Below, piece after piece: positions 1 to 17,562 of a DNA stretch of 32,000 nucleotides. Position 1 is the first letter of the stretch; each line of letters begins with the position of its first letter. The notes beneath the pieces were generated by a model. That model was not told where the DNA came from. It made no database searches and saw only the letters and a program-made list of their open reading frames with translations. Both the position numbers and the translations under genes were made by a program. Where the stretch lies: NCBI RefSeq assembly GCF_000012925.1, contig NC_007517.1, positions 1,260,001 through 1,292,000 of the forward strand, in the 5' to 3' direction. The stretch is from Geobacter metallireducens GS-15 (GTDB taxonomy: Bacteria; Desulfobacterota; Desulfuromonadia; Geobacterales; Geobacteraceae).

Positions 1-743
1 GCCGCAACCCTCTGCTCATGGACCCGGCCCGCCTCGAAGGGCCCCGGGCCATCCACACCCAGCGGCGGATGGTGACCGTGGCCGACTACGCCGACCGGCT
101 CACCGACCACCCACTGGTGCTGCGGGCCAGCGGCTGGAGCGCCTGGACCGGCTCGTGGCCCACAGTCCGGGTGGCCACGGTCCTCTGGAACGACCACCCC
201 CTCGATGAGGAGGGGCTCCCCTATCCCGATGACCTGCGGGAGCGGGTTATGGCGTTCCACCAAGAGCACCGGATCTGGGAACCGGTCTGGGAGCCGGAGC
301 CCCCCACCATCCGGACCATCCTCCGCCCCTATCTGGAGGCCTGGCGCATGGCCGGCCAGGAGGTGGTGCTGGAGGACGCAGTTCCCGTGGGGATCAAGAT
401 GTTCATCTCCATCCGGGTGCGGGAGAATTACTTCCAGTCCGAAGTCCGCAACGCCGTTCACCAGGCCCTCGGCACCGGGCCGGGGGGCTTCTTCGAGCCT
501 GGGCGCCACGACTTCGGCGAAGACCTCTACGCCAGCGACCTCTTCCAGACCCTCATGTCCCTGAATGGGGTCGAGAACGTCTGCCTCAACCGCTTTAAGC
601 GGTTCGGGGACCAGTACCCGGACCAGACCGACACGGGACGCATCCCGCTCCAGGGGCTCGAAATTGCCGTATGTGACAACGACCCGAGCCGCCCCGAGCG
701 GGGCTACATCAACCTCACCCTGACCGGAGGGCGCCGAGGATGA
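1..743 (+). CDS. Baseplate J (gp6/gpJ)-like protein, C-terminal part; 5' end outside the window
   Basis: The frame is open from base 3 to the TGA at 741-743, so the listed ORF 18..743 is probably internal to a longer gene. RRMVTVADYADRL resembles the R-x-R-A-V-T-x-x-D-[YF] signature near the C-terminus of baseplate J family proteins. The same signature recurs in the next ORF (LERAVSLDDFAWLA). The stop overlaps the next start (ATGA, 740-743). Confidence 0.55.
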   Translation, partial: RNPLLMDPARLEGPRAIHTQRRMVTVADYADRLTDHPLVLRASGWSAWTGSWPTVRVATVLWNDHPLDEEGLPYPDDLRERVMAFHQEHRIWEPVWEPEPPTIRTILRPYLEAWRMAGQEVVLEDAVPVGIKMFISIRVRENYFQSEVRNAVHQALGTGPGGFFEPGRHDFGEDLYASDLFQTLMSLNGVENVCLNRFKRFGDQYPDQTDTGRIPLQGLEIAVCDNDPSRPERGYINLTLTGGRRG

Positions 744-3700
744 GCACCGCAACCGACCTTACCCGCTGGAACCGCGCCGGACTAAGCCGCTTCAGGTACG
801 TGGACGGCAACGCCGTCACTTTTCTGGAACTGCTGCGGGCTGAGCTGGCCGAGCGCTTCCCCGCCTGGCAGGAGGTGACCCAGCTCCCCCTGGCCGAAAC
901 GGAAAGCGAGCGCCAGGAACGGATGCTGGAGCAATACCACGCTCCGCGGCGGGACTGGGCCTGGGAGATCACCCGGGTCCTGGCCCGCTCCTCCCACGTC
1001 CTGGCCGAGCACCTGGACGCCTACGCCAACGAGGGGTTCCTGGGGACCGCCACCCAGTGGGATACCGTGCGGCGCTTGGTGGAGATGATCGACTACCACC
1101 CGGCCCCCCCGGCCTCGGCCGCCACCCGGTTCGTCATCGAGGCCAAGGAGGCGGGGACCCTTGCGGCGGGGTTCGCCGTGAAGCATACCCCCGCCGATGG
1201 GAGTCCACCGGTGGTCTACGAGACCCTGGAGGAACTGAAGGTCGACCCGCTCCTCAACGCCCTCCGCTCCGCTGAATATAACCGGAACCCGGAACGGCTC
1301 GGCGGCGACACTCTCCTCCTGGAAGGGGAGGTGGAGGATCTCAAGACCGGCGAGCCGCTGGTCCTGGAAGACGAGCAGAGCGGCGTCCTTCGGGCCTACC
1401 TCATCGTCGGCACGCGCACCGTGGCGGGGAACACCGAGGTGCGGGTGACGCCGCGCCTCTCCCACCGGCTCCGCAAAGGGTACACCCTCATCCACGCCAA
1501 GCCGGCCGAGGGGCTTGCCCCGATCGGTCCGGCCGCCAAAGGGGCGGAGCTGGAGCGGGTCCTACGCCTCACCGAGGAGCCTGAGGGGCTCCTTACCGGG
1601 GCGGTGATCTACATCGACGACGGTGCCGAAGAGCTCTACCGCCGGGTCTACTCCGTGACCGGAAAACGGCTTGTCCTCGACACCGACGTGGGCCCCCTGC
1701 GGCTCGATACCGCCCGGGTCGGCTACCCGGTCACCATCACGGTGAGCGCTCAGGAGGAGCGCCCCGTGGACAGCCCCGGCTCCGTAATCTACGCCCTCAG
1801 GGTGGCCGGAGACTGGTCGCGCCTCGCCGACCGGCGGGTTGTCCAGGAGACCGTGGATGCCACGAAGCAGAAGCATCTTCCCTTCTACACGGTGACGGCG
1901 GCCCGCTACCATCCGGCCGACAGCGACCATCTCCGCAAGGGCTACACCATACTGACCGTCTCGTGGCTGAAGAGCGAACATCCCTTCCCCCTGGACAACC
2001 CCCAGACGCTGCTGGTGCCGCCGGTGGGGGTGGGGCCGTGGCGGACCGATACCTTCCTGGAGAAGCAGGATGGCCATCTCACGGCCGCCATCGTCACCGC
2101 CAAGCCCAAGAAGACCACGGTCGGCGACCTGGCCGTGGTGGTCATGGGGCACCAGGCCGCCTGGGCCCGGCTTGCCTCCGTGAGCGTCGACCTGGCGCGG
2201 GAGGAGGCGACCCTTACGGCGGAAGATGGGTGGGACGACCGGGGGGGCGGCGACTTCTTCCTCACGGAGACGAAGGTCTACGCCCACTTCAAGGAGGCGC
2301 TCCGGACCGTGGCCTGGCAGGAGAACCGCCAGCCCGTGACCGGAAACCGCATCCCCCTGGCGTTGGTGCCGTCTGCCCTGGAGAAGGGGCGCGTCCTCAT
2401 GGTGGAGCGGACCGACGACGCCACCGCCGCCTTCTTCACCACGGTGGCCAGGATCGAGGGGACCACCCTGGTTCTCGCCCGGGATCTGCCGGCGGGATTC
2501 ACCCGTGGAAACACCCTCATTGCCGGCAACGTGGCCCTTGCGGGCCATGGCGAGAGCAAGGGGGAGAAGGTCCTGGGGAGCGGCGACGCCACCCGGGCCA
2601 ACCAGTCCTTCGTCTTCGCCGAGGCGGAGGTCTCCTTCGTGGCCGATCCGACCCAGCCCGCCGGGGTGCGGGCCGCCATCGACCTCTCCGTGGCCGGACG
2701 GGTCTGGAAGCAGGTGGGTAGCTTCGCCGACTCGGGGCCCACCGACCACCACTACACGGTGAGGATGACCGAGGCGGGGCAGCTCCTCATCGCCTTCGGC
2801 GACGGGGTGCGGGGACGGCGCCTCCCCAGCGGCGTGAACAACGTGCGCGTCACCTTCCGCTCCGGAACGGGGCTCAGCGGGAACCTCCCGGCCGGAAGTC
2901 CCTTCAAGCCCTCCCGGCCCCACCGCCTGGTGGAGAAGGTGCGCCAACCCCTCCCCGCCACCGGCGGCAATGACCGGGAAGGAGTGGAGTCGCTGCGGGA
3001 GAACGCCCCGGCAACCCTCCTCACCCTGGAGCGGGCCGTCTCCCTGGACGACTTCGCCTGGCTGGCCATGTCCCAGAGCAGCGTCTGGCAGGCCCGGGCC
3101 TTCAGCCGCCCCACGGGGCTCGGCCGCAACGAGAAGGTGGAGGTGGTCGCGGTTCCCGCCGGTGGCGGGGCACTGGGAACCCTCGCCGCGACCCTCACCG
3201 ATTTCCTCACGGCCAATGCCGTGCCCGAGGTGGAGGTGACGGTCCTCCCCTACCAATCCCGCACCTTCGCCCTGGAGGTGCTCCTGACCGTGGATACCGC
3301 CGCCTACAATCCCGATGTAGTGACCGCTGCCGTGAAGAGCGCCCTTCAGGATGCCTTCTCCCTCCGGAAACGGAAGCTGGGGCAGGATCTCTTCCTGAGT
3401 GAGGTCTACCAGGTTGTGGAAGGGGTGACCGGCGTTGAGCACTCGGTGGCAGTCATCAATGGCGACCGGAGCGTGCGGAGGGTGGCTGCCGGCGACCGGG
3501 AGGTTCTCATCCTGGGGCAACTGGTGGTCGCTGTGGAAGGGGAGGCTGCGACAGGCCCCTCGCCGGGAGAGGCTATCGAGGCCAGTCCGCCGGCACCCAA
3601 GCCACGGCTGGTGGGGCGCCGGGGAGTGGGAGTCATCCAGGGGGTGGGGGACCGCTACGGCCAGCTCCTGCGGGGGGCGGGGATCCGGACCCTGAACGAC

Positions 3701-4006
3701 CTGCGGGGTATCGACCCCGCCCACCTCCCGACGGTCGATATCCCGCCAGTCAGATTGTGGGAGTTCAGGACCAAGGCGGAGATTGTAGTGGGGCTCGCTG
3801 CTGACCGCTCCCGGCTCGCGCCGCTCCTGGAACGCACCATCCACGACCTGGCCGAGGGTTCCTCCGCCGACCTGGTCCGGCTTACCGGCGAGTCAGCGGC
3901 GGCGGTGGACGAGCTGAAGGCGAAGCTCCGCCTCCTGCAGATCGCCCTGGACGAAGAGGTCTTTGCCGCAGTGACCCTGCGGGAGCTTCTGAGCGAGCTG
4001 GATTAA
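740..4006 (+). CDS. Large baseplate J-like 'putative baseplate assembly protein' (Afp11-like) with a C-terminal helix-hairpin-helix extension
   Basis: 1088-aa ORF, translationally coupled (ATGA) to the upstream ORF. The N-terminus TDLTRWNRAGLSRFRYVDG and the block GGNDREGVESLRENAPATLLTLERAVSLDDFAWLA match my recollection of the TIGR02243-type baseplate assembly family found in phage-tail-like loci. The last ~150 aa follow a Pro/Ala linker and carry HhH-type motifs (VIQGVGDRYGQLLRGAGIRTLNDL). Confidence 0.65.
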   Translation: MSTATDLTRWNRAGLSRFRYVDGNAVTFLELLRAELAERFPAWQEVTQLPLAETESERQERMLEQYHAPRRDWAWEITRVLARSSHVLAEHLDAYANEGFLGTATQWDTVRRLVEMIDYHPAPPASAATRFVIEAKEAGTLAAGFAVKHTPADGSPPVVYETLEELKVDPLLNALRSAEYNRNPERLGGDTLLLEGEVEDLKTGEPLVLEDEQSGVLRAYLIVGTRTVAGNTEVRVTPRLSHRLRKGYTLIHAKPAEGLAPIGPAAKGAELERVLRLTEEPEGLLTGAVIYIDDGAEELYRRVYSVTGKRLVLDTDVGPLRLDTARVGYPVTITVSAQEERPVDSPGSVIYALRVAGDWSRLADRRVVQETVDATKQKHLPFYTVTAARYHPADSDHLRKGYTILTVSWLKSEHPFPLDNPQTLLVPPVGVGPWRTDTFLEKQDGHLTAAIVTAKPKKTTVGDLAVVVMGHQAAWARLASVSVDLAREEATLTAEDGWDDRGGGDFFLTETKVYAHFKEALRTVAWQENRQPVTGNRIPLALVPSALEKGRVLMVERTDDATAAFFTTVARIEGTTLVLARDLPAGFTRGNTLIAGNVALAGHGESKGEKVLGSGDATRANQSFVFAEAEVSFVADPTQPAGVRAAIDLSVAGRVWKQVGSFADSGPTDHHYTVRMTEAGQLLIAFGDGVRGRRLPSGVNNVRVTFRSGTGLSGNLPAGSPFKPSRPHRLVEKVRQPLPATGGNDREGVESLRENAPATLLTLERAVSLDDFAWLAMSQSSVWQARAFSRPTGLGRNEKVEVVAVPAGGGALGTLAATLTDFLTANAVPEVEVTVLPYQSRTFALEVLLTVDTAAYNPDVVTAAVKSALQDAFSLRKRKLGQDLFLSEVYQVVEGVTGVEHSVAVINGDRSVRRVAAGDREVLILGQLVVAVEGEAATGPSPGEAIEASPPAPKPRLVGRRGVGVIQGVGDRYGQLLRGAGIRTLNDLRGIDPAHLPTVDIPPVRLWEFRTKAEIVVGLAADRSRLAPLLERTIHDLAEGSSADLVRLTGESAAAVDELKAKLRLLQIALDEEVFAAVTLRELLSELD

Positions 4007-4018
4007 ACGGAGACGATC

Positions 4019-6765
<2,747 letters not shown>

Positions 6766-6787
6766 TTTGTTGACTGAGAACACGGTT

Positions 6788-6800
6788 GCTCCGTGTTATT
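6788..6800. repeat. Right terminal/subterminal inverted repeat of the IS
   Basis: GCTCCGTGTTATT is the exact reverse complement of 5541-5553. It overlaps a local hairpin: AACACGG (6779-6785), loop TTGCT, CCGTGTT (6791-6797). Confidence 0.75.
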
Positions 6801-6830
6801 CCAATCGACTTTCATATCCAGGGGTAGCCC

Positions 6831-9800
6831 ATGAAAACTCAGATCTCACGCGACAGTTTCCAGCCGGACAAACGCTATACCGGCGTCCACCAGCAGCAGG
6901 GGCGGGTGATCACCGACGCCGACTGGAACGAGCTGGTGGCCGTCTGCCGGGAGCAGCTCCTCCAGGCCCTCGCTGATGTGGTAGGGAACGGCTCGCCCCG
7001 AACCGGCGCCGTCGCCATCACGGCCGACAGGAAGATCCTGCCCGGCGACCTCTACGTGGACGGCATCCGGGCGGAACTGCCGGGGAGCGCGCCGCTTCTG
7101 GCCAGTGCCCAGCCCGACCTGCCGGGCTACCCGGCGCTCCCTGCCACGGGGCCCTACATCGTCTATGCCGACGTCTGGGACCGGGTCGTCACCTCCCTGG
7201 AGGACGGCGCGCTGCGGGATCCGGGGCTCCACGGGGCCGACACCTGCACCCGCACCCAGACCATGCTCCAGGTGAAGACCTGCCCCGAGGCGGCGAACCC
7301 CGAGACGGGAATCCCGAAACGCGGGAACGCCACCCTCTCCCTTGCCCTCCACGCGAACCTGGAGGCGGGGGACCCCTGCGACCCCTGCGCCGGCCTCATC
7401 GCCGCCGGCACGGGGCGGGTCGGGAGCTACCTCTTCCGGCTGGAGGTCCACGCCGTTGAGGGGACGGCCGCAAACCCCACCCGCCTCATCCTCAAGTGGT
7501 CCAGCGAGAACGGGGCCGAGCAGTACGAGGCCCTTTCCGTGGAGAAGATGCCTCCGGGCTTCGTGGCCTCCAACTACGTCTATGAGTTCCATAACCTCAC
7601 CACCGAGAAGCACCTGGGGGTATTCCTGGGGACGGGGTTCACGCCCACCCATGGCGCCATCACGACTGCCTACGAGATTCCCATGGCTCCTCCCAAGGAG
7701 TTGGTCCGACGTTGGGACGGCTTCTGCGAACTGACCCGGGCGGGCGGTGTCTGGTCCTTGGCGGCCGGTGTCGACAAGGGGGTGACCCTCACCACGAGCG
7801 GTTTACCCACGGCCCCGGGCCACGTGACCCTCGGTTCCAGCGTCCAGATAAACCTGGAGGCGCTGCAGCTCACCCTCGACCTCACGGGCAAGACCTTCGT
7901 GGCGGGCGATTTCTGGCTCGGCACGGTCCGGGAGGCGGTCCTCGATCCGGGCGATGCGGTGCTGACCGGCGCCGAGCCCCGGGGGATCGTCCACCACTAC
8001 CTGCGGCTGGCTCGGGTTCAGGCCGACGGGACGGTGGTTCCCTTCGAGAACGACGCCGACAAGCGGCGCCACGCCTTTCCGCCACTCACCGACCTCCATG
8101 CCAACGATGTTGGGTACGTGACCACTTGCTCCAGCGGCCTCTTCGACGCCAGCCACGACAACGTGGAAAAGGCCCTGAACCGCCTCTGCCAGCTGGCCGC
8201 CGAGCATATCGCCTACACCGCCGACTGCACCAAGGGGCTCTACGCCGGTTTTGTCGGTACCGTGAAAGAGGCCCTCGACAAGATCTGCGAGATCCAGGCC
8301 TCTCACGTGGGGTTCGCAAAACCCTGCGATACAAGCGTCTACAAGGGGAGCACCATCGCCACGGTGGAGGATGCCTTGAAACTCCTTTGCAATGTTACTG
8401 CAGGGCAGATCGGCTTTGCCAAGCCGTGCGACACGAGCATCTACCAGGGACAGACCGTTGCCACCGTGGAGGACGCCCTGAAGCTCCTCTGCAACGTCAC
8501 CGCGGGGCAGATCGCCTACACGCCGGGGGGCTCCTGCACCTATCTCAACCAGCCGGGGATCGACACGGTGCAGGAGGCCCTCGACGCTCTCTGCGCCCGC
8601 CCCGCCGGTGGCGGCGGGGGGTGCCGGATCACTGTCGGGAAGGATGGGGGGCTCTTCGCCACCCTGGAGGAGGCCCTCAAGACCCTTATCGACAAGGGAG
8701 TGCGCGATATCTGTCTCTGTCTCCTGGCTGGGGATCACGAGTTTCCCGGCCAGCTCGTCGAACCGAAGGTCGACGGCGTTACCATCTGCCTGTCGGGGTG
8801 CGGCCATGGCACGCGGCTCCATCTCTTGAACGGGCCAATCCGCTTCAGAGCTTTCTCGGCGGTCTGCCTCTCGGACATGCTGGTCATCACCCGCGACGCC
8901 CCGACCGGGGCGCTGGTCTTTGACCGTTGCGGTGATGTCTCCCTGAAGGGGGTGGAGGTCCACGGGGTCGTCACCGACGGCTTCCTCGTGGGGTTCAATA
9001 ACGTCCGCTCCGCGGCCATGCACGGCCTCATGCTGGAGGCATCCAATCCCGCCAGCCTCGCCAGGCCCTCCAAGCTGTTTGACATCAACCCGACGCTCTT
9101 TGACCTCTACCAAGTGCCCGACCTGACCTTCTTCAACAGTAAGGTGCTCCCTGTGGCCCAGGTAGTGGCCGCCCTTTCGGCTGCGGAGCGCCGGAAGCTG
9201 GCGACGGCCATCGGCCAACGGGTGCAGGAACTGGGCTCGGCCCTTTCGGCCCGGGAACGTCAGAGTTACGAGGAATTGGTTGTCCTTCTGAACCAGACCA
9301 CCGTGAGCCCGGTCCAGTTGGCCGGGGTGCTCGGGAATATCCGCGTGGAGGCGATCCGGGAGCATCCCGCCGTTGCCCTGGTGGTGGACGATGCCGCCGC
9401 CGACATGACCCTCGGGGAGTGCGATATCCTCGGTATCGTCACCCTCTACGGCACCCATCCGGCAGATCCTCTCCCCGCGGGCATGGTAAAGGGGCTCGAT
9501 GCGCTGGTGAAACAGGGGAAGGCAACGTTCGGCGGGGCCGGTACCACCTTCCGGGCCACGGGGTGCCGCATGACCCGGATCGATGTCAGCACCGCCATCC
9601 AACAGCGGATCCAGGAGATCGTCGCCGGCGGTGACGGGACGATCCCGTCTCTCTTCTCCTCCGCCCTGTTGGGCGACCTGACGCTGCTGCACGAGGGGAA
9701 CCAGATGGCGTTCCTGAACACCAGCCTCTCCTCGACGGTCTTCGAGATAGAGGGGAGCCACGCCGCCGTGGTCATGGGGAGTTCCGCCATCTATGTCGGC

Positions 9801-9893
9801 AACCGGAGCGAGGGGGAGGCGGTCATCATGAACGTCACGCCCAAGGGGCGCTCCCAGCAGGCTGCCAACCTGGGGATAACCATCGCGGGGTAG
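6831..9893 (+). CDS. eCIS-associated large protein: DUF6519-like N-terminus, five Cys-pair repeats, beta-helix-like region (candidate fibre/receptor-binding protein)
   Basis: 1020-aa ORF. The N-terminus ISRDSFQPDKRYTGVHQQQGRVITDADWNE matches a conserved opening motif I recall as DUF6519 in eCIS loci. It has five 33-36-aa repeats (8097-8612), then a poly-Gly stretch. After that comes a segment with short alternating hydrophobic strands and Cys/Gly turns (ICLCLLAGDHEF..VTICLSGCGHGTRLHL..) typical of right-handed beta-helices. It occupies the position where Afp13-like fibres occur. Confidence 0.6.
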   Translation: MKTQISRDSFQPDKRYTGVHQQQGRVITDADWNELVAVCREQLLQALADVVGNGSPRTGAVAITADRKILPGDLYVDGIRAELPGSAPLLASAQPDLPGYPALPATGPYIVYADVWDRVVTSLEDGALRDPGLHGADTCTRTQTMLQVKTCPEAANPETGIPKRGNATLSLALHANLEAGDPCDPCAGLIAAGTGRVGSYLFRLEVHAVEGTAANPTRLILKWSSENGAEQYEALSVEKMPPGFVASNYVYEFHNLTTEKHLGVFLGTGFTPTHGAITTAYEIPMAPPKELVRRWDGFCELTRAGGVWSLAAGVDKGVTLTTSGLPTAPGHVTLGSSVQINLEALQLTLDLTGKTFVAGDFWLGTVREAVLDPGDAVLTGAEPRGIVHHYLRLARVQADGTVVPFENDADKRRHAFPPLTDLHANDVGYVTTCSSGLFDASHDNVEKALNRLCQLAAEHIAYTADCTKGLYAGFVGTVKEALDKICEIQASHVGFAKPCDTSVYKGSTIATVEDALKLLCNVTAGQIGFAKPCDTSIYQGQTVATVEDALKLLCNVTAGQIAYTPGGSCTYLNQPGIDTVQEALDALCARPAGGGGGCRITVGKDGGLFATLEEALKTLIDKGVRDICLCLLAGDHEFPGQLVEPKVDGVTICLSGCGHGTRLHLLNGPIRFRAFSAVCLSDMLVITRDAPTGALVFDRCGDVSLKGVEVHGVVTDGFLVGFNNVRSAAMHGLMLEASNPASLARPSKLFDINPTLFDLYQVPDLTFFNSKVLPVAQVVAALSAAERRKLATAIGQRVQELGSALSARERQSYEELVVLLNQTTVSPVQLAGVLGNIRVEAIREHPAVALVVDDAAADMTLGECDILGIVTLYGTHPADPLPAGMVKGLDALVKQGKATFGGAGTTFRATGCRMTRIDVSTAIQQRIQEIVAGGDGTIPSLFSSALLGDLTLLHEGNQMAFLNTSLSSTVFEIEGSHAAVVMGSSAIYVGNRSEGEAVIMNVTPKGRSQQAANLGITIAG
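8097..8612 (+). repeat. Five tandem in-frame 33-36-aa repeats, each with two Cys and a V-x-[EK]-A-L-x-x-[LI]-C core
   Basis: The units start at HANDVGYVTTC, HIAYTADC, HVGFAKPC, IGFAKPC and IAYTPGGSC. Units 3 and 4 (8307-8408 and 8409-8510) are 29/34 identical in protein but differ at about half of their third codon positions. Confidence 0.8.
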
Positions 9894-9947
9894 GAGGTGA
9901 GGGGCTGAAGGTGCACCGAACGGAGCTGTGATAACTCTTGCCATCGG

Positions 9948-10922
9948 ATGGAGATCCCAATGGGAATGATCCGTATTCATACAACCGCCACGAGCCCTCT
10001 TGTTGGCCGGAACAATGCCGCGCTTTCCGGAATCCATTTGACTCCGGATGCGGCAGTTCGCCGGATCGTTCGTGCCGGGGCAATCCAGGCCGGTGACTAT
10101 GATCAACTCAATGACGGGAAGGAAGCGGGTTCTCCCTCCACCGTCGAAACCTGTCGCGAAAATTCGGCAGGCATTCGCCAGTGCCTCCGGACGCCGGAGA
10201 AGCGACTGCAACGCACCCCCGGCAGACCCTCACGTCTTGTCCCCGACCTGGAGGAAGCCACGGTAAACGACCTGGAATCGTACATGCCGATGGCCCGTTC
10301 CGACCAGTTGCGACAGCAGATGGTGGATGCAATAGTCTCCGACCGACAGCGCAAAGGGACCGATTTCAGCATAATGGTGCGCGGCCGACCGGTCTATGAC
10401 AGTGATCTCTGGCAGCGGGCAATGCAGCAGCTTCCAGCAGAACAGCGGAGTGAGCCCCGAAACGGCATAACCGTGCATCCCCGAACACAGCTCAACCCCG
10501 ACCCGCTGCCGCTGGTGCTCATCGGCCCGACTGCCTTCGGCCCCCTCATCGACCCATCCAATCGAGACCTTGTCAGAGAGCTGGTGGTCCGTCTCTACAC
10601 CGCAATCACCCACGAATACCGGCACGCGACCCAGTGGCAGCGCCCCGCCGAAGCAACGGCCATGGGGAGGGTTCGCCTTGAGGTGGATGCCTTTTTCGCG
10701 GATATCGAAAACAGCCGTGCGACGGGGCTGGCAGGCCAGCGGGAGCCGTTTCGCCACACCTGGGACGAGGCGGTCGGCTGGTGGCGGCAGCTCCGCGCCC
10801 CCGCCCTGTGGGGCGCCCTTTCCGATGATGAGCGGCGGGCCTATGCCGAGCGATGCCGGCGGGTGTTCGCCGTTGTCCAGTCGGTCCTGGGGCGCGGCGT
10901 GAGTTCTCCCTGCGGTCCCTGA
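9948..10922 (+). CDS. Hypothetical protein with an HExxHxxQ motif (possible divergent DUF4157-like / zincin-like protein); start uncertain
   Basis: 324-aa ORF with no family I recognise. HEYRH lies at 10611-10625, followed by ATQWQ, and a Glu sits 19 residues after the second His (RLEVD). Alternative starts are ATG 9960 (GGAGAT upstream), 10284 and 10290. Codon usage is less GC3-biased than in the structural genes. Confidence 0.45.
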   Translation: MEIPMGMIRIHTTATSPLVGRNNAALSGIHLTPDAAVRRIVRAGAIQAGDYDQLNDGKEAGSPSTVETCRENSAGIRQCLRTPEKRLQRTPGRPSRLVPDLEEATVNDLESYMPMARSDQLRQQMVDAIVSDRQRKGTDFSIMVRGRPVYDSDLWQRAMQQLPAEQRSEPRNGITVHPRTQLNPDPLPLVLIGPTAFGPLIDPSNRDLVRELVVRLYTAITHEYRHATQWQRPAEATAMGRVRLEVDAFFADIENSRATGLAGQREPFRHTWDEAVGWWRQLRAPALWGALSDDERRAYAERCRRVFAVVQSVLGRGVSSPCGP

Positions 10923-10977
10923 ACAGAAATGGCGATGGCGCAGGCTACCTCAGTATGTGGAGAATAGGGAGGCGAAC

Positions 10978-11706
10978 ATGAAAACTTTCGCCGACAAACT
11001 GAAAACCAGCCCTGGGCCCGTCCGACGGACGCCAGTTTCAGAGGTTTCTCTCTATGGGTCACCAGGTAAGAATCGGCTGGAGGTTCAACAGATTATTCGC
11101 AGCACCAAAATTCAGCCCAGACTGGTGGTCGGTACACCCAACGATGTCTACGAGCGCGAGGCCGACCACGTGGCGGACGCGGTGATGCGGATGCCCGACG
11201 GGACGGTTTTTTCCGGGCTTACCGGCCGCGAGGATGACGCTGTCCAGGCAAAATCTGCCGGTGAGGCCGCACCGATTGCCGGCGAACTCTCCGAGGAGGA
11301 AGAGGAAAAGCTCGTCAGTCTCAAAGCGGACGGTGATGGAGAAGTTCCACTTTCTGGCGAATTGGATGAGCGAATACGTGCCTTGGAGGGGGGCGGGGTT
11401 CCCCTTGGCGAAGGGGAGAGGGCTTTCTTCGAGCCCCGCTTCGGCGCCGATTTCAGCCAGGTGCGGATCCATACGGGTTCAGCGGCCGAAGAGATGGTCC
11501 GGTCGCTGAACGCCCTGGCCTTCACGTTTGGGCAGGACATCGTGTTCGGGGCAGGTCACTATGCACCTGATACCCCAGTGGGCCGGCAGTTGTTGGCCCA
11601 TGAACTGGTTCATACGGTTCAGCAGAACGGGAGAACGGTGATTCAACGGGGCGGCCAGGATGACCAGGAGCCTGAGGGTAGAAGAGATGGAGACTCCGCC
11701 TCCTGA
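10978..11706 (+). CDS. DUF4157 domain-containing protein (eCIS-associated zincin-like domain)
   Basis: I prefer ATG 10978, preceded by AGGGAGG, over the GTG at 10957. PNDVYEREADHVADAVMRMP and FFEPRFGADFSQVRIHTGSAAEEMVRSLNALAFTFGQDIVFGAGHYAPDTPVGRQLLAHELVHTVQQ match the DUF4157 consensus as I know it. HELVH lies at 11599-11613. Confidence 0.8.
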   Translation: MKTFADKLKTSPGPVRRTPVSEVSLYGSPGKNRLEVQQIIRSTKIQPRLVVGTPNDVYEREADHVADAVMRMPDGTVFSGLTGREDDAVQAKSAGEAAPIAGELSEEEEEKLVSLKADGDGEVPLSGELDERIRALEGGGVPLGEGERAFFEPRFGADFSQVRIHTGSAAEEMVRSLNALAFTFGQDIVFGAGHYAPDTPVGRQLLAHELVHTVQQNGRTVIQRGGQDDQEPEGRRDGDSAS

Positions 11707-11712
11707 GTTTAA

Positions 11713-11826
11713 GCCGATGCCTTCACTCCCTGGCGAGGTACGCGAGGCATGAAATTCGGCCGGACCCTGAACCGCCGGGTGGAGCTCTTTCTGGTCCGCA
11801 CCGCAACCGTTCCCTCTTCGCCCTGA
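11713..11826 (+). pseudogene. Possible remnant of an OmpA-like (peptidoglycan-binding) domain C-terminus
   Basis: The translation ADAFTPWRGTRGMKFGRTLNRRVELFLVRTATVPSSP* contains the canonical OmpA_C terminal signature G-R-x-x-N-R-R-V-E-L. It is far too short to be a domain. It lies in the same frame as the DUF4157 ORF, separated from it by TGA-GTT-TAA. Confidence 0.3.
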
Positions 11827-11840
11827 ATCAAGGACGCCCT

Positions 11841-14231
11841 ATGAAAGTCTTTCTCCGAAAACCGAACCGCACCGGTCTGCGAAACCAGCATCCCGCGTCT
11901 GGAGCATCCTTGCCCCAAGGGGCTTCGTCCAAACAGGTGCGGTTGATCCTTCGGGGCGATCTGCGGCAAGGGATGGTCCTGCGGAAAAAGACCGCCGCAA
12001 AAAAGACCGTCTTCTACCAGTTGGTGCTTGACGAGATCGCCGGCGAAGAGAAGAGCGTTTCGGAGTCGGGGGGGATAAACCTCTTTCCCGAGCGCCTCCG
12101 GTTTTTCAATAAACTGAAGGACCTGTGCGAGGCCGTCGACGCGGGCGACGCCAAGGAGATTGCCAGTCAGGTGCCGGAGTTCATCAAGGAAGATCCTCCG
12201 GTCAATGCCCCCTATGTCATTTTCGATACGGTTTTCCGGGAGTTGGTGGCCCGGATGGCCGTGCAGGGACGCCACGGGGAGGCGCTCAAGCTCCAGGAGT
12301 GGTTTCTGGGGCGCAAAAAGAAGGAACAGACATACACCTCGCCGTGGCGAAAATATGCCGAAGAAGCGTATCTGGCGGAAACCGTCGTGGAGCGGGCAAC
12401 GGCATTCCTGGAATCGGCCGGCGCCGATGGGGCCCTCGGGGCGCTGGACGGGTTCATCGAAGCGCTGCGGTGGCTCCGCGACCGGTATGCCGCCCTGGAC
12501 ATGGACGCCGTCAAGGAGGACGCCCGGAACAATGCCGAGATCGCGACTTTCGGAGGGTCCCTCATGCCGAGCATCAGGCATACCCTGTCCGGGTATTACG
12601 GGCAGCTGGTGGAACTGATGAAGGCCGCGGCAACCGGCACCCAGAAGGCCTTCCAGGCCGTCCTCGACCTAGCCGTGGCCGACCTGGAGAAGGGGAAAGG
12701 GGGGCGGCTGGGTGAAGCAAAGGAACGGCTTGCGCGGCTCCAGGGCGTGGTGATGCCTGAGGGAAAAATGGAGGAAGGGAAGAGAATTCCCGGCCTCCGC
12801 GTGGAAGTCACCAAGTCAGTGTTCAGTGAGAAGAAGGGGCGGCACCTCGATATCTTTCTGGAGGGAAAGGCTGCGGAAAAACGGAGCATCGGCATCGAAT
12901 ACTACGAAAGGGAGATGGGGGGGACCTTTGCTGAGGAGAAGGAACTTCCTCTTGGACGCATACTCCAGGTTCGGCGCAAGCAGATCGAAGTGCTGGAGCT
13001 CCTCTACGGCGAGGCCCGCGACAAAACCGGCGCCGTGACGGCCGAGGCGAAGGAGAACCGGGAGCTCATCGAGCAGTCCCTTAAGGGGAGGATGCGGCTC
13101 CACAATAACGACGACTGGCGCACCTTCCTCCTGGCCAAGTTCCGGGCACTGGAGCCACAGGTGGGACGGGAGAAGGCCTTTGCCAAGGTGATCGATCTGC
13201 TGAGGTTCTACCTCCTCGCCTTCACCACCCACACCCCTTACAACATCGAGGATTTCGGCGTCAACTACCTGAACCGCACCTTCCCCCGGGCGCTGACCGG
13301 CCAGCTCATCCACGACTGCGGGGTCTACGCCATCCGGATCGCCTATATCCTTTCCCTGGTCCGCACTGAGCTTGATCTGGAGTTCCGGTTCGTGCGCCTC
13401 CCGCTCCACGTGGGGCTCGTGATTACCGGGACGGGGCTCCCGGCGTATGTGGTCCACAACGACCAGTTCATCCCCGTGAGCCAAGCCGAAATGGCCGATC
13501 TGCGAAAGCAGTGGCGGGAAACCGACGCGATGGGGGACCCGCGCAAGCCCGCCCCCCTTGACGAGCGGCAGTTCCTGGGAGAGGTTTCCGCCTCGCAGTT
13601 CGTCCCCAACGTGGACATCCCGTTCCGTATTATCGACCTTCCACCCCCCAAGGGGAAGCCCGCGGAGATAAAGGATCAGCTCTGGAAGCTCTACACCAGG
13701 CGAGTCGCCCCCGCCGAACTCTTCAGCGCCGCCATCGGCAACCCCGGCTCCCCCCACTACCAGTTCGATCTCAAGTATCTGGAACTCCTCAAAATGTATA
13801 AAGAATGGTTCAATGAAACCTATGTGCCGTTCTGGAACGCGGAGGGGCGCGGCATCTGGCTTAAGCACCGGGATGCGATCCGCAAGGCCCATGCCCGCCT
13901 CCAGGCTGCCGCCGGCGGGACGGGGCAGGCCGAAGCCGAGAACGAGTACCAGAAAACGATCGCTCCCTACCGGCAGGCCCTGGACGTCGCGTTTCAGAAG
14001 GTCGAGAATGGGCGGGGAAAGCTTATTGTCTTGCAGGTGGAGATTTCCACGTATTTGGCTGAGCATCCTGAAGTGCTCGCGAAGGGAGCACGGGTAAGTC
14101 CTTACCAGCGGCTCGATCTGGGTGGATGGGTAACGGCGTGGTTCTGGCGCTATCTCAGTGAACTTCTCAACGGGGCTGCCGTGGAACCACCCTTTGCCCC
14201 GGAGGATAGCTTCCTATGGCCCATTGACTGA
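11841..14231 (+). CDS. Hypothetical 796-aa protein; candidate eCIS cargo with a papain/transglutaminase-like Cys-His-Asp arrangement
   Basis: AAGGA lies 6 nt upstream of the ATG, and coding periodicity is clear throughout. The N-terminal ~480 aa are rich in E/K/A/L (helical). The C-terminal region has LIHDCGVYAIRIAY (Cys493, 13317-13319), LPLHVGLVI (His523, 13407-13409) and VVHNDQ (Asp541, 13461-13463). I recognise no family. Confidence 0.7.
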   Translation: MKVFLRKPNRTGLRNQHPASGASLPQGASSKQVRLILRGDLRQGMVLRKKTAAKKTVFYQLVLDEIAGEEKSVSESGGINLFPERLRFFNKLKDLCEAVDAGDAKEIASQVPEFIKEDPPVNAPYVIFDTVFRELVARMAVQGRHGEALKLQEWFLGRKKKEQTYTSPWRKYAEEAYLAETVVERATAFLESAGADGALGALDGFIEALRWLRDRYAALDMDAVKEDARNNAEIATFGGSLMPSIRHTLSGYYGQLVELMKAAATGTQKAFQAVLDLAVADLEKGKGGRLGEAKERLARLQGVVMPEGKMEEGKRIPGLRVEVTKSVFSEKKGRHLDIFLEGKAAEKRSIGIEYYEREMGGTFAEEKELPLGRILQVRRKQIEVLELLYGEARDKTGAVTAEAKENRELIEQSLKGRMRLHNNDDWRTFLLAKFRALEPQVGREKAFAKVIDLLRFYLLAFTTHTPYNIEDFGVNYLNRTFPRALTGQLIHDCGVYAIRIAYILSLVRTELDLEFRFVRLPLHVGLVITGTGLPAYVVHNDQFIPVSQAEMADLRKQWRETDAMGDPRKPAPLDERQFLGEVSASQFVPNVDIPFRIIDLPPPKGKPAEIKDQLWKLYTRRVAPAELFSAAIGNPGSPHYQFDLKYLELLKMYKEWFNETYVPFWNAEGRGIWLKHRDAIRKAHARLQAAAGGTGQAEAENEYQKTIAPYRQALDVAFQKVENGRGKLIVLQVEISTYLAEHPEVLAKGARVSPYQRLDLGGWVTAWFWRYLSELLNGAAVEPPFAPEDSFLWPID

Positions 14232-14294: not shown

Positions 14295-15650
14295 CTAAAG
14301 TTCCTTTGCAACCTCACGGGCAGCGATTACGACCGGGTCCCAGACCGGTGAGAACGGGGGGGCATAGCCCAGGTCCAGGTTGATCATCTCCTCCACCGTA
14401 AAACCGGCATGAAGGGCGGTCGCCAGGGTATCTATCCGCTTGGCCGAGCCTTCCATCCCGACGATCTGCCCTCCCAGCAGGCGGCCGCTCCCCCGTTCCG
14501 CCAACACCTTTACGGTTATTCCCCCTGCGCCGGGAAAGTAGCCGGCCCTGGTGCGGCTCTTAATGACGGCGCTGATCCACTCAATCCCCAGTTCCCTGAG
14601 TTCCTCTTCCTGGAGGCCGGTCCGTGCGACCTCCACCTGGCATATTTTTGTGACCGCTGTCCCCACGACCCCGGGAAACGTGGCATAGCCGCCCCCCAGG
14701 TTGATCCCCGCGACCCTTCCGTGCCGGTTGGCGACGGTGCCGAGGGCGATATGGACGGGTTTGCGGCTCACCAGATGGAACGATTCGGCGCAATCCCCTG
14801 CCGCCCAGATACCGGCAACGCCGGTCTGCATCCGTTCGTTCACCCTGATCGACCCCTTCTCCCCGAGGGGGATGCCGGCAGCCGAGGCAAGGGCCGTGTT
14901 AGGGCGCACCCCCAGGCCGAGGATCACGATGTCAGCCGGCAGGGTGCGCCTGTCCGTGACCACCCCGGTCACTTTCCCCCCCTTTGTCTCGAACGCGGTG
15001 AGAGTCTCCTCCAGATAAAGGCTGACCCCCACATCGCGCAGGGCCTGTGAGACCATGGCCCCCATGTCGTAGTCGAGGGTTCCCATGACCTGCGGTGCCC
15101 TGTTGACGAGGGAAACCTCAAGGCCATGCCGTACCAACGCTTCCGCCATCTCCAGGCCGATGTACCCGCCCCCGACGACAACTCCCTTTTTCATCCCCCC
15201 CTTGTCGAGACGCCTGCGGATCTCCAGGCCACTTTCAAGGGTGTTCACCCCGCAGATGTCAACGGCATCGGAGCCGGGAAGGTCCGGGCAGAGGGGGACC
15301 GCGCCGGTGGCGATCAGAAGCTGGTCGTAGGACTCCCACGCCGACCCGCCGCGCTGCAGATCGCGCACCCGCACCTTTCCCTGTGCCGCGTCGATTTCCA
15401 CTACCTCATGCAGGGCCCTTGCATCGATTCCATATTTCTCCCGGAACTTTTCCGGGGAACGGATAACGAGCTTTTCTTCCTTGTCGACAACCCGGCCGAC
15501 GTAGTAGGGAATCCCTCACGCGGAAAAGGACGTGTGGGGGCTTCGCTCGAAAACGACGATCTCCAGTTCGGGCCGGCGGCGCTTCGCCTGGGATGCGGCG
15601 CTCATCCCCGCGGCATCTCCGCCGATGACAACGAGTTTTTCCTTGGCCAT
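14295..15650 (-). CDS. Pyridine nucleotide-disulfide oxidoreductase (CoA-disulfide reductase / NADH oxidase family) with in-frame UGA; predicted selenoprotein
   Basis: ORFs 15516..15716 and 14295..15401 share one frame and are separated only by the TGA at 15516-15518. Read-through gives 451 aa: MAKEKLVVIGGDAAGMSAA (FAD Rossmann) .. ERSPHTSFSA-[UGA]-GIPYYVGRVV .. VVVGGGYIGLEMAEAL (NAD(P)H Rossmann). The UGA replaces the single redox-active Cys of this family. GGAGAGGA lies upstream of ATG 15650. Confidence 0.8.
15483..15518 (-). promoter_or_regulatory. UGA codon plus candidate bacterial SECIS hairpin
   Basis: On the mRNA: UGA, then 15 nt, then GUCGGC-CGGGUU-GUCGAC (plus-strand coordinates 15483-15500). 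This gives a 6-bp stem (one G-U pair) and a 6-nt loop containing GGU, about 21 nt after the UGA. That is within the usual UGA-to-loop distance for bacterial SECIS elements. Confidence 0.5.
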
Positions 15651-15806
15651 GATTCGTATCCTCTCCAGATCAATACAGTTTGATGGCAAGACCTGTGTGG
15701 AACTGAAATTGATCAATCCCTATGAAATGGGAAACTGCAGTCATGCGGCATGCCCCATGTCCCCGTCAAAACCGGTCTTGCTTAGCGGGGCGGTTCAGGG
15801 CTGTGC

Positions 15807-16094
15807 TCACGTAACCTTTTTGATAGCGTCGCACAAAATGGATTTGACCTCGCCCCAGATCTGCTCCGTTCCCGTTTTGAGGTCTTCCCACTCATCATCG
15901 GTGGCGGCAGATATACCCTGCAGTTTTTCCGCGGCTTCATCCCGCTTGAGCTGCAATGCCGTGATCGTGTTGTGATAGTCAAACCTCTCCTCGGGCGTGG
16001 CACTTTCCGCCTTGTCCTTGAGCCGATCGATCTGTGCATCCCATTCGACGATTTGTGCCGAGAGTTTTTCCACGTACTCTTTTCGCTCGTCCAT
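15807..16094 (-). CDS. Small acidic coiled-coil protein, function unknown
   Basis: 95 aa from ATG 16094, with a strong GGAGGG upstream. The longer listed ORF from 16244 has no SD sequence. The sequence MDERKEYVEKLSAQIVEWDAQIDRLKDKAE.. has a heptad-like helical character. Confidence 0.55.
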   Translation of the reverse strand: MDERKEYVEKLSAQIVEWDAQIDRLKDKAESATPEERFDYHNTITALQLKRDEAAEKLQGISAATDDEWEDLKTGTEQIWGEVKSILCDAIKKVT

Positions 16095-16378
16095 GACAGC
16101 ACCCTCCGCATCAGTCTGAAAGCCGACTTCATACCGGCGCGTTAGCCATTTGGGACCAGACTCTGCCGCGTATGGCGGGAACACTCCCGCATTACGTCCA
16201 TGTACCAGAGATTCTACCAGCTGTATTGAGTAATTCCACTGCATTACTGGAAAGGTCTAAGCTATCGCGTTCGCGTGGATGTTGGCCGGCTCCTTGTAAT
16301 CCTCAGATGAGCAAAGGTCTTCTCAAGTGTCCCAAGCTCGACCAGTAAATCTTGAAGTTTCCGGTGGGGTCTGACCAC

Positions 16379-16410
16379 AAAAAACTCCCTTCCGGTGTAC
16401 CAGAAGAGAG
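16379..16410 (-). terminator. Rho-independent terminator downstream of tRNA-Sec
   Basis: Minus strand: CUCUCUUCUGG-UACA-CCGGAAGGGAG forms an 11-bp stem (two G-U pairs), followed by UUUUUU. Confidence 0.6.
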
Positions 16411-16463
16411 TCTGTGAGTGAAAAGGTCTTTTAAGTTCAGTTTTTCAAGACCTTATGTTTGAC

Positions 16464-16561
16464 TGGCGGAAGCACATGGGAATCGAACCCACCGAGGAGA
16501 TTTCTCATCCCCCCCACCAGTTTTGAAGACTGGGCCGCCCACCAGCGACGGACGTGCTTCC
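16464..16561 (-). tRNA. selC: tRNA-Sec (anticodon UCA)
   Basis: Minus strand: GGAAGCAC-G-UCCGUCGCUGGUGGGCGGCC-CAGU CUUCAAA ACUGG-long variable arm (UGGGGGGGAUGAGAAAUCUCCUCGGU)-GGGUUCGAUUCCCA-UGUGCUUCC-G-CCA. It has an 8-bp acceptor stem, a UCA anticodon in a 7-nt loop, a long extra arm and an encoded CCA. It closely parallels E. coli selC. Confidence 0.9.
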
Positions 16562-16758
16562 ATAAGCGTTATCGTTACTGCCAAAATAGGATATTTCATC
16601 TTGCAAGACAACCCCCAAATTATTGTCGACATAACATCCTTACCTGAACATCCGGCCCTATCGGCACAGATGTAACTTGATGAATATGGTATTAAATGGT
16701 ATCAATTTGCCTGAAGGATATGGTTGCGAAATTACCCAGAAATTCTTTCGGAGGATCT

Positions 16759-17562
16759 ATGCGACTTCAACTGTTACGATTCGTGGGGGCACTTTCCCTG
16801 ACAGCGTGCCTCGCTGCACCGACTGCCTTTGCGGCGCCGAAAGAACAAGCCAAGGGGGAAACCCCTGAGGCGGCCGTAAAACGGCTCTTTCCGAAGCTTC
16901 CCGCCACCGCGGTGAAAAAAACCGATATCGACGGGTTCTATGAGGTTGTGGCTGACGGGAATATTCTCTATGTCAACGTGAAGACCGGTCACGTGTTTGT
17001 GGGTGACATTTTTACGCGGGAGGGGAAAAACCTGACGGCCGAGGCTCGCACCCGCCTCACTGCCGAGCGCTATAAGCTCATTACCGAGGCCGACAAAGAG
17101 AAGGCGGTGAAGGTGGGGAACGGCAAGCATGTGGTCATCGAGATCACCGACCCCGACTGCCCCTTCTGCCGCAAGATGCATGAGTACTGGGGAAACCGTC
17201 CCGATGTGACGCGTTATGTTTTCTTCCTCCCCCTTGCGATGCATAAGGATGCTGAAAAGAAGGCCCGCTATATCCTGGCGGCCGACAATAAGGAACAAGC
17301 CCTCTGGGAGGTCTATTCGGGGGAACTCGACAATAACCGCGAGAAGCTGAACAAGCCCTATGACGACAAGGGGTTGCTCTCCGCGCACAAGGCGGTGGTG
17401 GCAAAGCTCGGCATCCAGTCGACCCCTGCCTTCTGGGTAGACGGTACTTTTGTGAATGGCGCGAATATCCCGCTTATCGAAAAGATCATCGGCAAGTGCA
17501 ACCTCCGGCAAGGAACTGCTCCAGGTGAGCCGAAGGTGTGCGATGATGAGCAGGGGAAGTGA
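16759..17562 (+). CDS. DsbC/DsbG-family periplasmic thiol:disulfide interchange protein
   Basis: ATG 16759 is preceded by GGAGGA. It has a signal peptide (MRLQLLRFVGALSLTACLAAPTAFA), a DsbC_N-like segment (IDGFYEVVADGNILYVNVKTGHVFVGDIF) and a thioredoxin-fold CxxC (DPDCPFCRKMH). Confidence 0.8.
   Translation: MRLQLLRFVGALSLTACLAAPTAFAAPKEQAKGETPEAAVKRLFPKLPATAVKKTDIDGFYEVVADGNILYVNVKTGHVFVGDIFTREGKNLTAEARTRLTAERYKLITEADKEKAVKVGNGKHVVIEITDPDCPFCRKMHEYWGNRPDVTRYVFFLPLAMHKDAEKKARYILAADNKEQALWEVYSGELDNNREKLNKPYDDKGLLSAHKAVVAKLGIQSTPAFWVDGTFVNGANIPLIEKIIGKCNLRQGTAPGEPKVCDDEQGK

Follow-up and report, generated by a model that had tools for sequence, protein, structure and literature searches.

A family of selenoproteins whose prototype is WP_011365774.1 from Geobacter metallireducens has already been catalogued, as the later papers that cite the catalogue describe it (PMC1794560, PMC9312934, PMC13188914). 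A 2006 survey listed an 'NADH oxidase' as a selenoprotein of G. metallireducens and counted one selenocysteine (Sec)-containing member (PMC1794560), and a single sequence of the NADH-oxidase selenoprotein was present in the metagenome of the Olavius symbiont (PMC1976440). Here we analyze a 32,000-nucleotide (nt) stretch of the G. metallireducens GS-15 genome (NC_007517.1, positions 1,260,001 to 1,292,000; hereafter, the window), in which a minus-strand gene for a flavoprotein of this kind is interrupted in frame by a TGA. The reference that the reviews give for the prototype (their reference 12) is reportedly Kryukov and Gladyshev 2004. Because the reading frame continues undamaged before and after the TGA, the UGA falls at the catalytic cysteine (Cys), a hairpin downstream of it is conserved, a tRNA-Sec is encoded nearby, and UGA is otherwise a usual stop, we regard this as very probably a genuine Sec-decoded gene. 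Comparison with related sequences supports one functional gene for a Sec-containing flavoprotein with a bacterial Sec insertion sequence (SECIS), and not a pseudogene. The original prediction for this stretch had referred to reports of NADH-oxidase-like selenoproteins in deltaproteobacteria, and rightly so (PMC1794560, PMC9312934, PMC13188914).

Like the catalogued family, the predicted protein has a TIGR03385/COG0446 domain, a U-G-x-P motif (PMC13188914) that appears in the window as U-G-I-P, a Geobacter-type deltaproteobacterial setting, and homologs that contain Cys. TIGR03385, the model for coenzyme A disulfide reductase (CoADR), was its best NCBIfam match (E 1.3e-133, 446.1 bits, residues 5-444 on profile positions 1-439). 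Unlike the one Sec member of the 2006 survey, however, the Sec form was found in 50 of the 80 nearest species genomes, including a Syntrophales subgroup in which the motif reads U-S-I-P. The solved Cys enzymes, namely Thermus thermophilus NADH oxidase (6ruz), Pyrococcus horikoshii CoADR (4fx9 and 5l1n), 3kd9, and 3cgb from Bacillus anthracis, are collinear with the product over its full length (E 7e-109 to 1e-95; for 6ruz, E 7e-109, residues 4-446 on 3-441). They have the same flavin adenine dinucleotide (FAD), NAD(P)H, and dimerization domains and one redox residue in S-[FY]-x-A-C-G-[IL]-P-Y, but in the window protein that residue is predicted to be Sec. In the printed alignments of 6ruz, 5l1n, and 4fx9 (3/3), the Cys of S-x-x-A-C-G-[IL]-P-Y stands opposite residue 45, and the motif S-[FY]-x-x-C-[GA]-[LI]-P-Y is present with U for C, with no second Cys of a CxxxxC disulfide. 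The persulfide and polysulfide reductases 3ntd, 3icr, and 8a56 (565-588 residues) differ in carrying a C-terminal rhodanese domain, none of which was found in the window protein.

The best-known selenoenzyme of the flavoprotein disulfide reductase superfamily is mammalian thioredoxin reductase, in which Sec lies in a C-terminal GCUG extension and works with an N-terminal CVNVGC disulfide, and the SECIS lies in the 3' untranslated region. Both proteins would be FAD/NAD(P)H pyridine-nucleotide disulfide oxidoreductases that use Sec in redox catalysis, but the Sec of the window protein would replace the single N-terminal redox Cys by the flavin, with its SECIS inside the coding sequence (CDS).

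The gene, its domains, and the associated RNA elements are listed in Table 1. Translation of the minus-strand frame from 15650 to 14295 gave a single internal stop, the TGA at codon 45, in the context ...ERSPHTSFSA-*-GIPYYVGRVVD..., and a mechanical list of open reading frames (ORFs) has a same-frame pair on either side of it (15516..15716 and 14295..15401). Pfam was run on the product with Cys substituted for the internal stop and returned, in addition to the matches in the table, Pyr_redox_2 over residues 5-295 (E 3.5e-62). From these matches the predicted product is a single-Cys (group 3) flavoprotein disulfide reductase of the CoADR-like branch (CoADR/NADH-oxidase type) with its redox residue encoded by UGA. 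The original prediction had described two same-frame minus-strand ORFs parted only by this TGA, a joined 451-residue product with both Rossmann motifs, and a TGA placed at the single redox-active Cys. The ORF list and the translation agree with the first of these, GGDAAG and GGGYIG were each located in the product, and the structures 6ruz, 5l1n, and 4fx9 put their Cys at the TGA.

Table 1. Positions of the candidate Sec-decoded gene, its predicted domains, and associated RNA elements, numbered from the first letter of the window.
Feature	Position	Strand	Basis or detail
tRNA-Sec gene (selC), anticodon UCA	16464..16561	-	ARAGORN; Rfam RF01852, 75.5 bits, gathering score 47
Shine-Dalgarno-like GGAGAGG, 9 nt 5' of ATG	15660..15666	-	Direct reading of sequence
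Complete CDS of predicted selenoprotein	14295..15650	-	451 codons; ATG 15648-15650, Sec-UGA codon 45, stop TAG 14295-14297
N-terminal FAD-binding Rossmann segment, residues 5-43, motif GGDAAG (residues 10-15)	15522..15638	-	Pfam NAD_binding_8, residues 8-43
UGA codon 45, predicted to be read as Sec in place of the single redox-active Cys	15516..15518	-	Aligned to Cys of solved structures; TGA in 50/80, TGC/TGT in 30/80 relatives
Putative bacterial SECIS hairpin GUCGGC-CGGGUU-GUCGAC, 18 nt	15483..15500	-	Stem 15495-15500 with 15483-15488 (6 bp); apical loop CGGGUU 15489-15494
NAD(P)H-binding Rossmann domain, residues 156-232, motif GGGYIG	14955..15185	-	Pfam PF00070 Pyr_redox, E 1.3e-22
Dimerization domain, residues 333-436	14343..14654	-	Pfam PF02852 Pyr_redox_dim, E 5.7e-18

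Two sets of relatives were compared: the 80 most similar species-representative loci (G. metallireducens was not among the 80 kept) and the 120 best database proteins. At the homologous codon, TGA stands in 50 of the 80 genomes and TGC or TGT in 30. The closest species-level relatives are 85-86% identical; the database homologs include full-length 451-residue proteins at 80-86% identity and many of 359-392 residues at up to 91%. At the site itself, 66 of the 120 proteins have Cys, 51 lack the N terminus, 2 are printed with tryptophan (W), and 1 is printed with serine. The residue aligned with the TGA is Cys, rather than a gap or another residue, in the PDB chains, in these 66 proteins, and at the 30 Cys-codon loci. 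TGA forms come from three sources, the first being Geobacteraceae/Desulfuromonadales-type bacteria, including the cultured Geomobilimonas luticola JCM 17780, Geobacter sp. AOG1, and Geomesophilobacter sediminis, the second Syntrophales, including Syntrophus buswellii DM-2, and the third the Desulfoferrobacter/Desulforhabdus group (Syntrophobacterales-type bins).

The relatives also carry an intact frame. Exactly 451 codons and a single TGA were found in 20 Sec-form genes (the window gene and those of 19 loci). Mean entropies at codon positions 1, 2, and 3 are 0.34, 0.17, and 1.09 bits for codons 1-44 and 0.28, 0.19, and 1.06 bits for codons 46-451, and this third-position-dominated variation on both sides of the TGA indicates that the two parts evolve as one coding frame. 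At one locus from a long-read metagenome-assembled genome (L032, 6001-7354), extra in-frame stops were seen and the match exceeds its expected length by one base; the probable cause is a sequencing error that shifted the frame, rather than decay.

The original prediction had placed GUCGGC/CGGGUU/GUCGAC 15 nt past the UGA, and it was located at 15500-15483, beginning exactly 15 nt 3' of the TGA. The TGA plus hairpin pattern occurs once in the window against 0 occurrences expected by chance. Among the Sec forms (n=51, the window and 50 TGA loci), all 51 have GUCGGC-NNGGUU-GUCGAC or a one-base variant of it at an equal distance from the UGA, and 44 have GGTT in the loop. Their mean third-codon-position entropy falls to 0.21 bits in the hairpin compared with 1.38 in the flanks, but in the Cys forms (n=30) it is 1.57 bits in the hairpin region and 1.47 in the flanks. 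Because synonymous sites are frozen only in TGA forms, we conclude that the constraint acts on the RNA and is linked to the UGA. All six stem pairs are kept in 49/51 Sec forms versus 3/30 Cys forms; five stem variants occur among the Sec forms, of which three stay paired through G-U and two lose one pair.

The same helix is the only one in the RNAalifold consensus of 48 distinct sequences, which also closes the stem with a seventh pair, formed by the base at the third position of the preceding Tyr codon and the base that directly follows GAC. At this pair (columns 18/37 of alignment A1) the 48 sequences have C-G in 20, U-A in 18, U-G in 5, and C.A in 5. For this named structure the share of paired cells is 97.9%, compared with 20-86% when the 3' partners are slid 1 to 3 columns, and none of 500 shuffles reached the observed covariation score, a count that is not a probability given that the sequences are related. 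When segments of 41-60 nt were folded from the UGA, the hairpin was in the minimum-energy structure with pair probabilities of 0.94-1.0, and the 41-nt segment had an energy of -11.8 kcal/mol, which includes a small, non-conserved second hairpin.

A published model of bacterial SECIS elements calls for a loop of 3-9 nt, a stem of 4-16 base pairs (bp), a UGA-to-loop distance of 16-37 nt, and a G within the first two loop positions (PMC13188914). The window element has a 6-nt loop, a 6-bp stem, and G at loop position 2, and its UGA-to-loop distance is 21 nt (15 of spacer and 6 of stem), a spacing that is invariant in 51/51 Sec forms; each value falls within the ranges of the model, and together with the freezing seen only in TGA forms this bears out the proposed SECIS. 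As in the E. coli fdhF-type SECIS and the bSECISearch consensus, the hairpin lies within the CDS just 3' of the UGA and has a short apical loop with G-G/U-U. It differs from them in that no conserved lower stem was found, just a minimal upper hairpin of 6-7 bp. In the minimal E. coli element a U is bulged and the distance from the UGA is 11 nt; the window hairpin, in contrast, starts at 15 nt and has no bulge.

A neighbor-joining tree adds a view of how the two forms may have been exchanged. The Sec forms make up the three clades named above, and four Cys forms (L003, L004, L006, and L010, the match starting at 6001 in each) are nested in the Geobacter-type Sec clade. In these four, the first hairpin codon has changed from Val to Ile (GUC to AUC/AUU), the outermost core pair is lost, and the synonymous sites of the former hairpin are starting to vary, as if Sec had recently been converted to Cys and the SECIS had then relaxed. 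The Syntrophales orthologs (L045-L049, L052, L055, L056, L058, L060, L065-L070, and L072) have U-S-I-P and not U-G-x-P, and their loop reads AAGGUU or AGGGUU, allowing a seventh A-U pair and an AGGU/GGGU tetraloop.

These comparisons bear first on the possibility that the gene is a pseudogene, in which a nonsense mutation from TGC or TGT to TGA disabled a flavoprotein gene of the Cys type and left the frame beyond it to decay. The TGA is indeed one mutation away from TGC/TGT, gene callers take it as a stop, and the window showed no selA, selB, or selD. Yet the TGA stands at the same codon in 50/80 species-level genomes from several orders, and 20 Sec-form genes have exactly 451 codons with no other stop. 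Together with the third-position-dominated variation on both sides, the hairpin frozen only in TGA forms, and the presence of tRNA-Sec, this makes a pseudogene extremely improbable. The functional selenoenzyme put forward in the original prediction is favored by the alignment to Cys, the lack of decay in relatives, and the Sec-only freezing of the SECIS.

The decoding apparatus is visible in part. The tRNA-Sec is the decoder of UGA and shows that the genome has the Sec trait; it was the only element to reach its gathering score in an Rfam scan of the window. The original prediction had noted a tRNA-Sec about 0.8 kb away on the same strand, and one does lie upstream on that strand with a gap of 814 nt to the ATG, but the adjacency is not conserved. 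Within 6 kb of the ortholog, tRNA-Sec was found at 0/60 related loci (L001-L060), and synteny of the flanking genes with related loci was essentially absent, so we rejected the linkage as a clue to function. A terminator-like hairpin (16382-16413) directly follows the tRNA-Sec, which therefore looks like its own transcription unit.

A further alternative is that the UGA specifies a standard amino acid, by a reassigned code (Trp/Gly, tables 4/25) or by leaky near-cognate read-through, and not Sec; it draws on the W printed at the Sec position in two JGI calls (P0002 and P0016). The DNA under P0002 (L084, 206-208), however, has TGA at the site and the same hairpin behind it. The W there is a product of the translation table that the caller used; evidently a table with TGA as Trp was applied to those JGI contigs. 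In the window the standard code holds, since TGA ends 14/24 family-supported ORFs, which excludes a reassigned code, and its structure marks the tRNA with anticodon UCA as tRNA-Sec. Furthermore, W or glycine at the catalytic Cys would give a dead enzyme, and Cys is the only genomic alternative seen. We therefore consider such a reading hardly credible.

Public assemblies show how the gene is usually presented. In Logan assemblies an identical 368-residue C-terminal fragment and a separate 44-residue N-terminal fragment are called as two genes, side by side, as the original prediction had said ORF callers would do; the exact 368-residue fragment is indexed in 65 blocks of independent assemblies, of which 24 contigs were inspected, and the sequence occurs in the Logan assemblies of SRR12983616, SRR12983624, and SRR12983626. 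A split of this kind leaves the FAD-binding Rossmann segment on the 44-residue fragment, and a weak NAD_binding_8 match was obtained for the 44-residue gene of L081-L083. One could take these calls at face value and propose two genes, one for a peptide of 44 residues and another, with a start of its own, for a protein of 368 residues; automatic annotation and a possible GTG start at 15401 would speak for this. Yet the 368-residue piece would have neither the FAD-binding Rossmann segment nor the catalytic residue, the 38 codons from the TGA to the GTG (15402-15515) are conserved as in-frame coding sequence, and the Cys-form homologs are single 451-residue proteins. The chance that two genes are present is accordingly very slight. 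Least probable of all is a sequencing or assembly error, for although single-base errors occur in metagenome assemblies and the long-read bin L032 has extra stops, the identical 368-residue fragment preceded by the 44-residue one in 65 blocks of independent assemblies shows that the TGA is no artifact of one assembly, and the same TGA stands in the orthologs of 50 other genomes.

Several points weigh against the Sec-decoded reading and against a firm assignment of its substrate. The case is built from sequence and its comparison, and selenium incorporation is deduced from these. Among the family-matched ORFs of the window there is no selA, selB, or selD with which to complete the machinery. 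At the seventh pair, the window is one of the five C.A mismatch cases (15482 and 15501), and covariation supports one pair only, as the six core pairs are almost invariant and the sequences are phylogenetically related. The hairpin alone folds at -6.4 kcal/mol, weaker than the model threshold of -7.5 kcal/mol, the energy model used being unlike that of bSECISearch; with three extra 5' bases, the minimum-energy fold of the single sequence favors another structure, and its z-score of 0.83 is unremarkable. No Rfam model matched the hairpin, and a permissive scan of 15380-15560 gave chance-level matches on the other strand. As to the substrate, the TIGR03385 score lies under its equivalog cut-off of 578.8, and the second NCBIfam match, NF007123 (CoA-disulfide reductase), reached 418 bits against a cut-off of 458.

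Thermodynamics alone is weak evidence, and the case for a Sec-decoded gene rests on the comparison between genomes. SelD and further selenoproteins have been reported for other Geobacter species (PMC1794560). Two more NCBIfam models also scored low, NF010037 with 266 against a cut-off of 394 and the H2O-forming NADH oxidase model NF046103 with 241.7 bits, far below its cut-off of 600. Because the scores fall under the equivalog cut-offs, no substrate is assigned, and the predicted protein is CoADR-like yet not assignable as a strict CoADR. Homology suggests CoA disulfide, a persulfide, or O2/H2O2 as candidates.

The bacterial Sec decoding pathway, as summarized in PMC13188914, suggests how the gene would be expressed. 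As the ribosome approaches, SelB with GTP and Sec-tRNA(Sec) would bind the GGUU-containing apical loop, as in the established bacterial pathway, and would then deliver Sec at the UGA, 21 nt upstream of the loop; if selenium or SelB were limiting, translation would end at codon 45, after 44 residues. By homology with the solved Cys enzymes, NAD(P)H would reduce the FAD, which in turn would reduce an oxidized Sec45 center beside the flavin. This center could be a selenenyl-sulfide with CoA, another low-molecular-weight thiol or a persulfide, or it could be a selenenic acid. In an anaerobe, the enzyme may thus serve to detoxify oxygen or peroxide or act in thiol-disulfide detoxification.

The genes around the selenoprotein candidate give a mixed picture. 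A gene for an sll1863-family stress-response protein (15807-16244, minus strand) lies directly upstream of it and is also near the ortholog at L002, L011, and L017. The ortholog is adjoined by an Fe/Mn superoxide dismutase at L001 and by a universal stress protein (Usp) at L049. These stress genes form a loose association with the orthologs and not an operon. We also looked to conserved neighbors for a clue to the substrate and found none, since a beta-CASP nuclease, YceI, a LytTR regulator, Usp, superoxide dismutase, and a hydrolase vary between genomes and the sll1863-family gene alone recurs. Divergent from the tRNA-Sec is a gene (16696-17562, plus strand) for a DsbC/DsbG-like periplasmic thiol:disulfide isomerase (DsbC_N and Thioredoxin_2) with the active site C-P-F-C. 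It is the Cys form of the PF13098 (UxxC) family, of which reviews list Sec members in Geobacter.

On the other side of the selenoprotein gene lies a contractile-injection-system block (18-14231, plus strand) with Baseplate_J, Tail_P2_I, DUF6519, eCIS_core, and large proteins without a family match. Most of the block has a GC content of 0.63-0.71, compared with 0.50-0.60 over most of the window right of 16 kb, where three 1-kb windows reach 0.62-0.63. The block lies 3' of the tRNA-Sec and may be an island gained by horizontal transfer; a boundary was sought as a repeat of the tRNA-Sec 3' end, and none was found in the window. Within the block, an IS110-family transposase ORF (DEDD_Tnp_IS110 and Transposase_20; 5317-6765, plus strand) coincides with a local GC dip to 0.55-0.58, and the L081 assembly of the same locus ends near it. 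The last gene of the block (11841-14231, plus strand), convergent with the selenoprotein gene, encodes a 796-residue protein without a family match, which has 773 residues in one assembly and 796 in another. This length variation between samples (L081, 7105-9426; L082, 4748-7138) is accompanied by a neighboring eCIS_core protein of equal length in both.

What appears to go beyond the existing catalogues is the spread of the Sec form (50/80), the near-invariance of its SECIS across orders, and the Syntrophales U-S-I-P subgroup; the advance is incremental, and the current understanding of Sec decoding is unchanged by it. A bolder proposal, which taken jointly we think unlikely, is that the Sec form is dominant and not sporadic in anaerobic Geobacterales, Syntrophales, and Syntrophobacterales-type bacteria, with one nearly invariant SECIS, and that this carries implications for the chemistry or the spread of the enzyme. 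If that were true, Sec may provide a chemistry that Cys enzymes lack; persulfide, polysulfide, selenium species, or peroxide might, for instance, be turned over by way of a selenenyl-sulfide or selenenic acid beside the flavin. Alternatively, the Sec allele may have spread by horizontal transfer, which in this genome might be tied to a selC-linked island carrying the GC-rich contractile-injection-system block.

For annotation, public data show the gene split or truncated (as 44 and 368 residues, with 51/120 best homologs truncated at the N terminus and two more printed with W), and because callers split it in this way, the family is under-counted and its members would look like fragments without the FAD-binding segment. 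To our knowledge, no Sec-containing single-Cys flavoprotein reductase has been characterized, and this makes the enzyme a reasonable biochemical target. A SECIS inside the CDS also constrains the protein, in which V-G-[RK]-V-V-D is kept. For the evolution of the family, the four nested Cys forms with their relaxed hairpins offer a clean natural experiment on the exchange of Sec and Cys.

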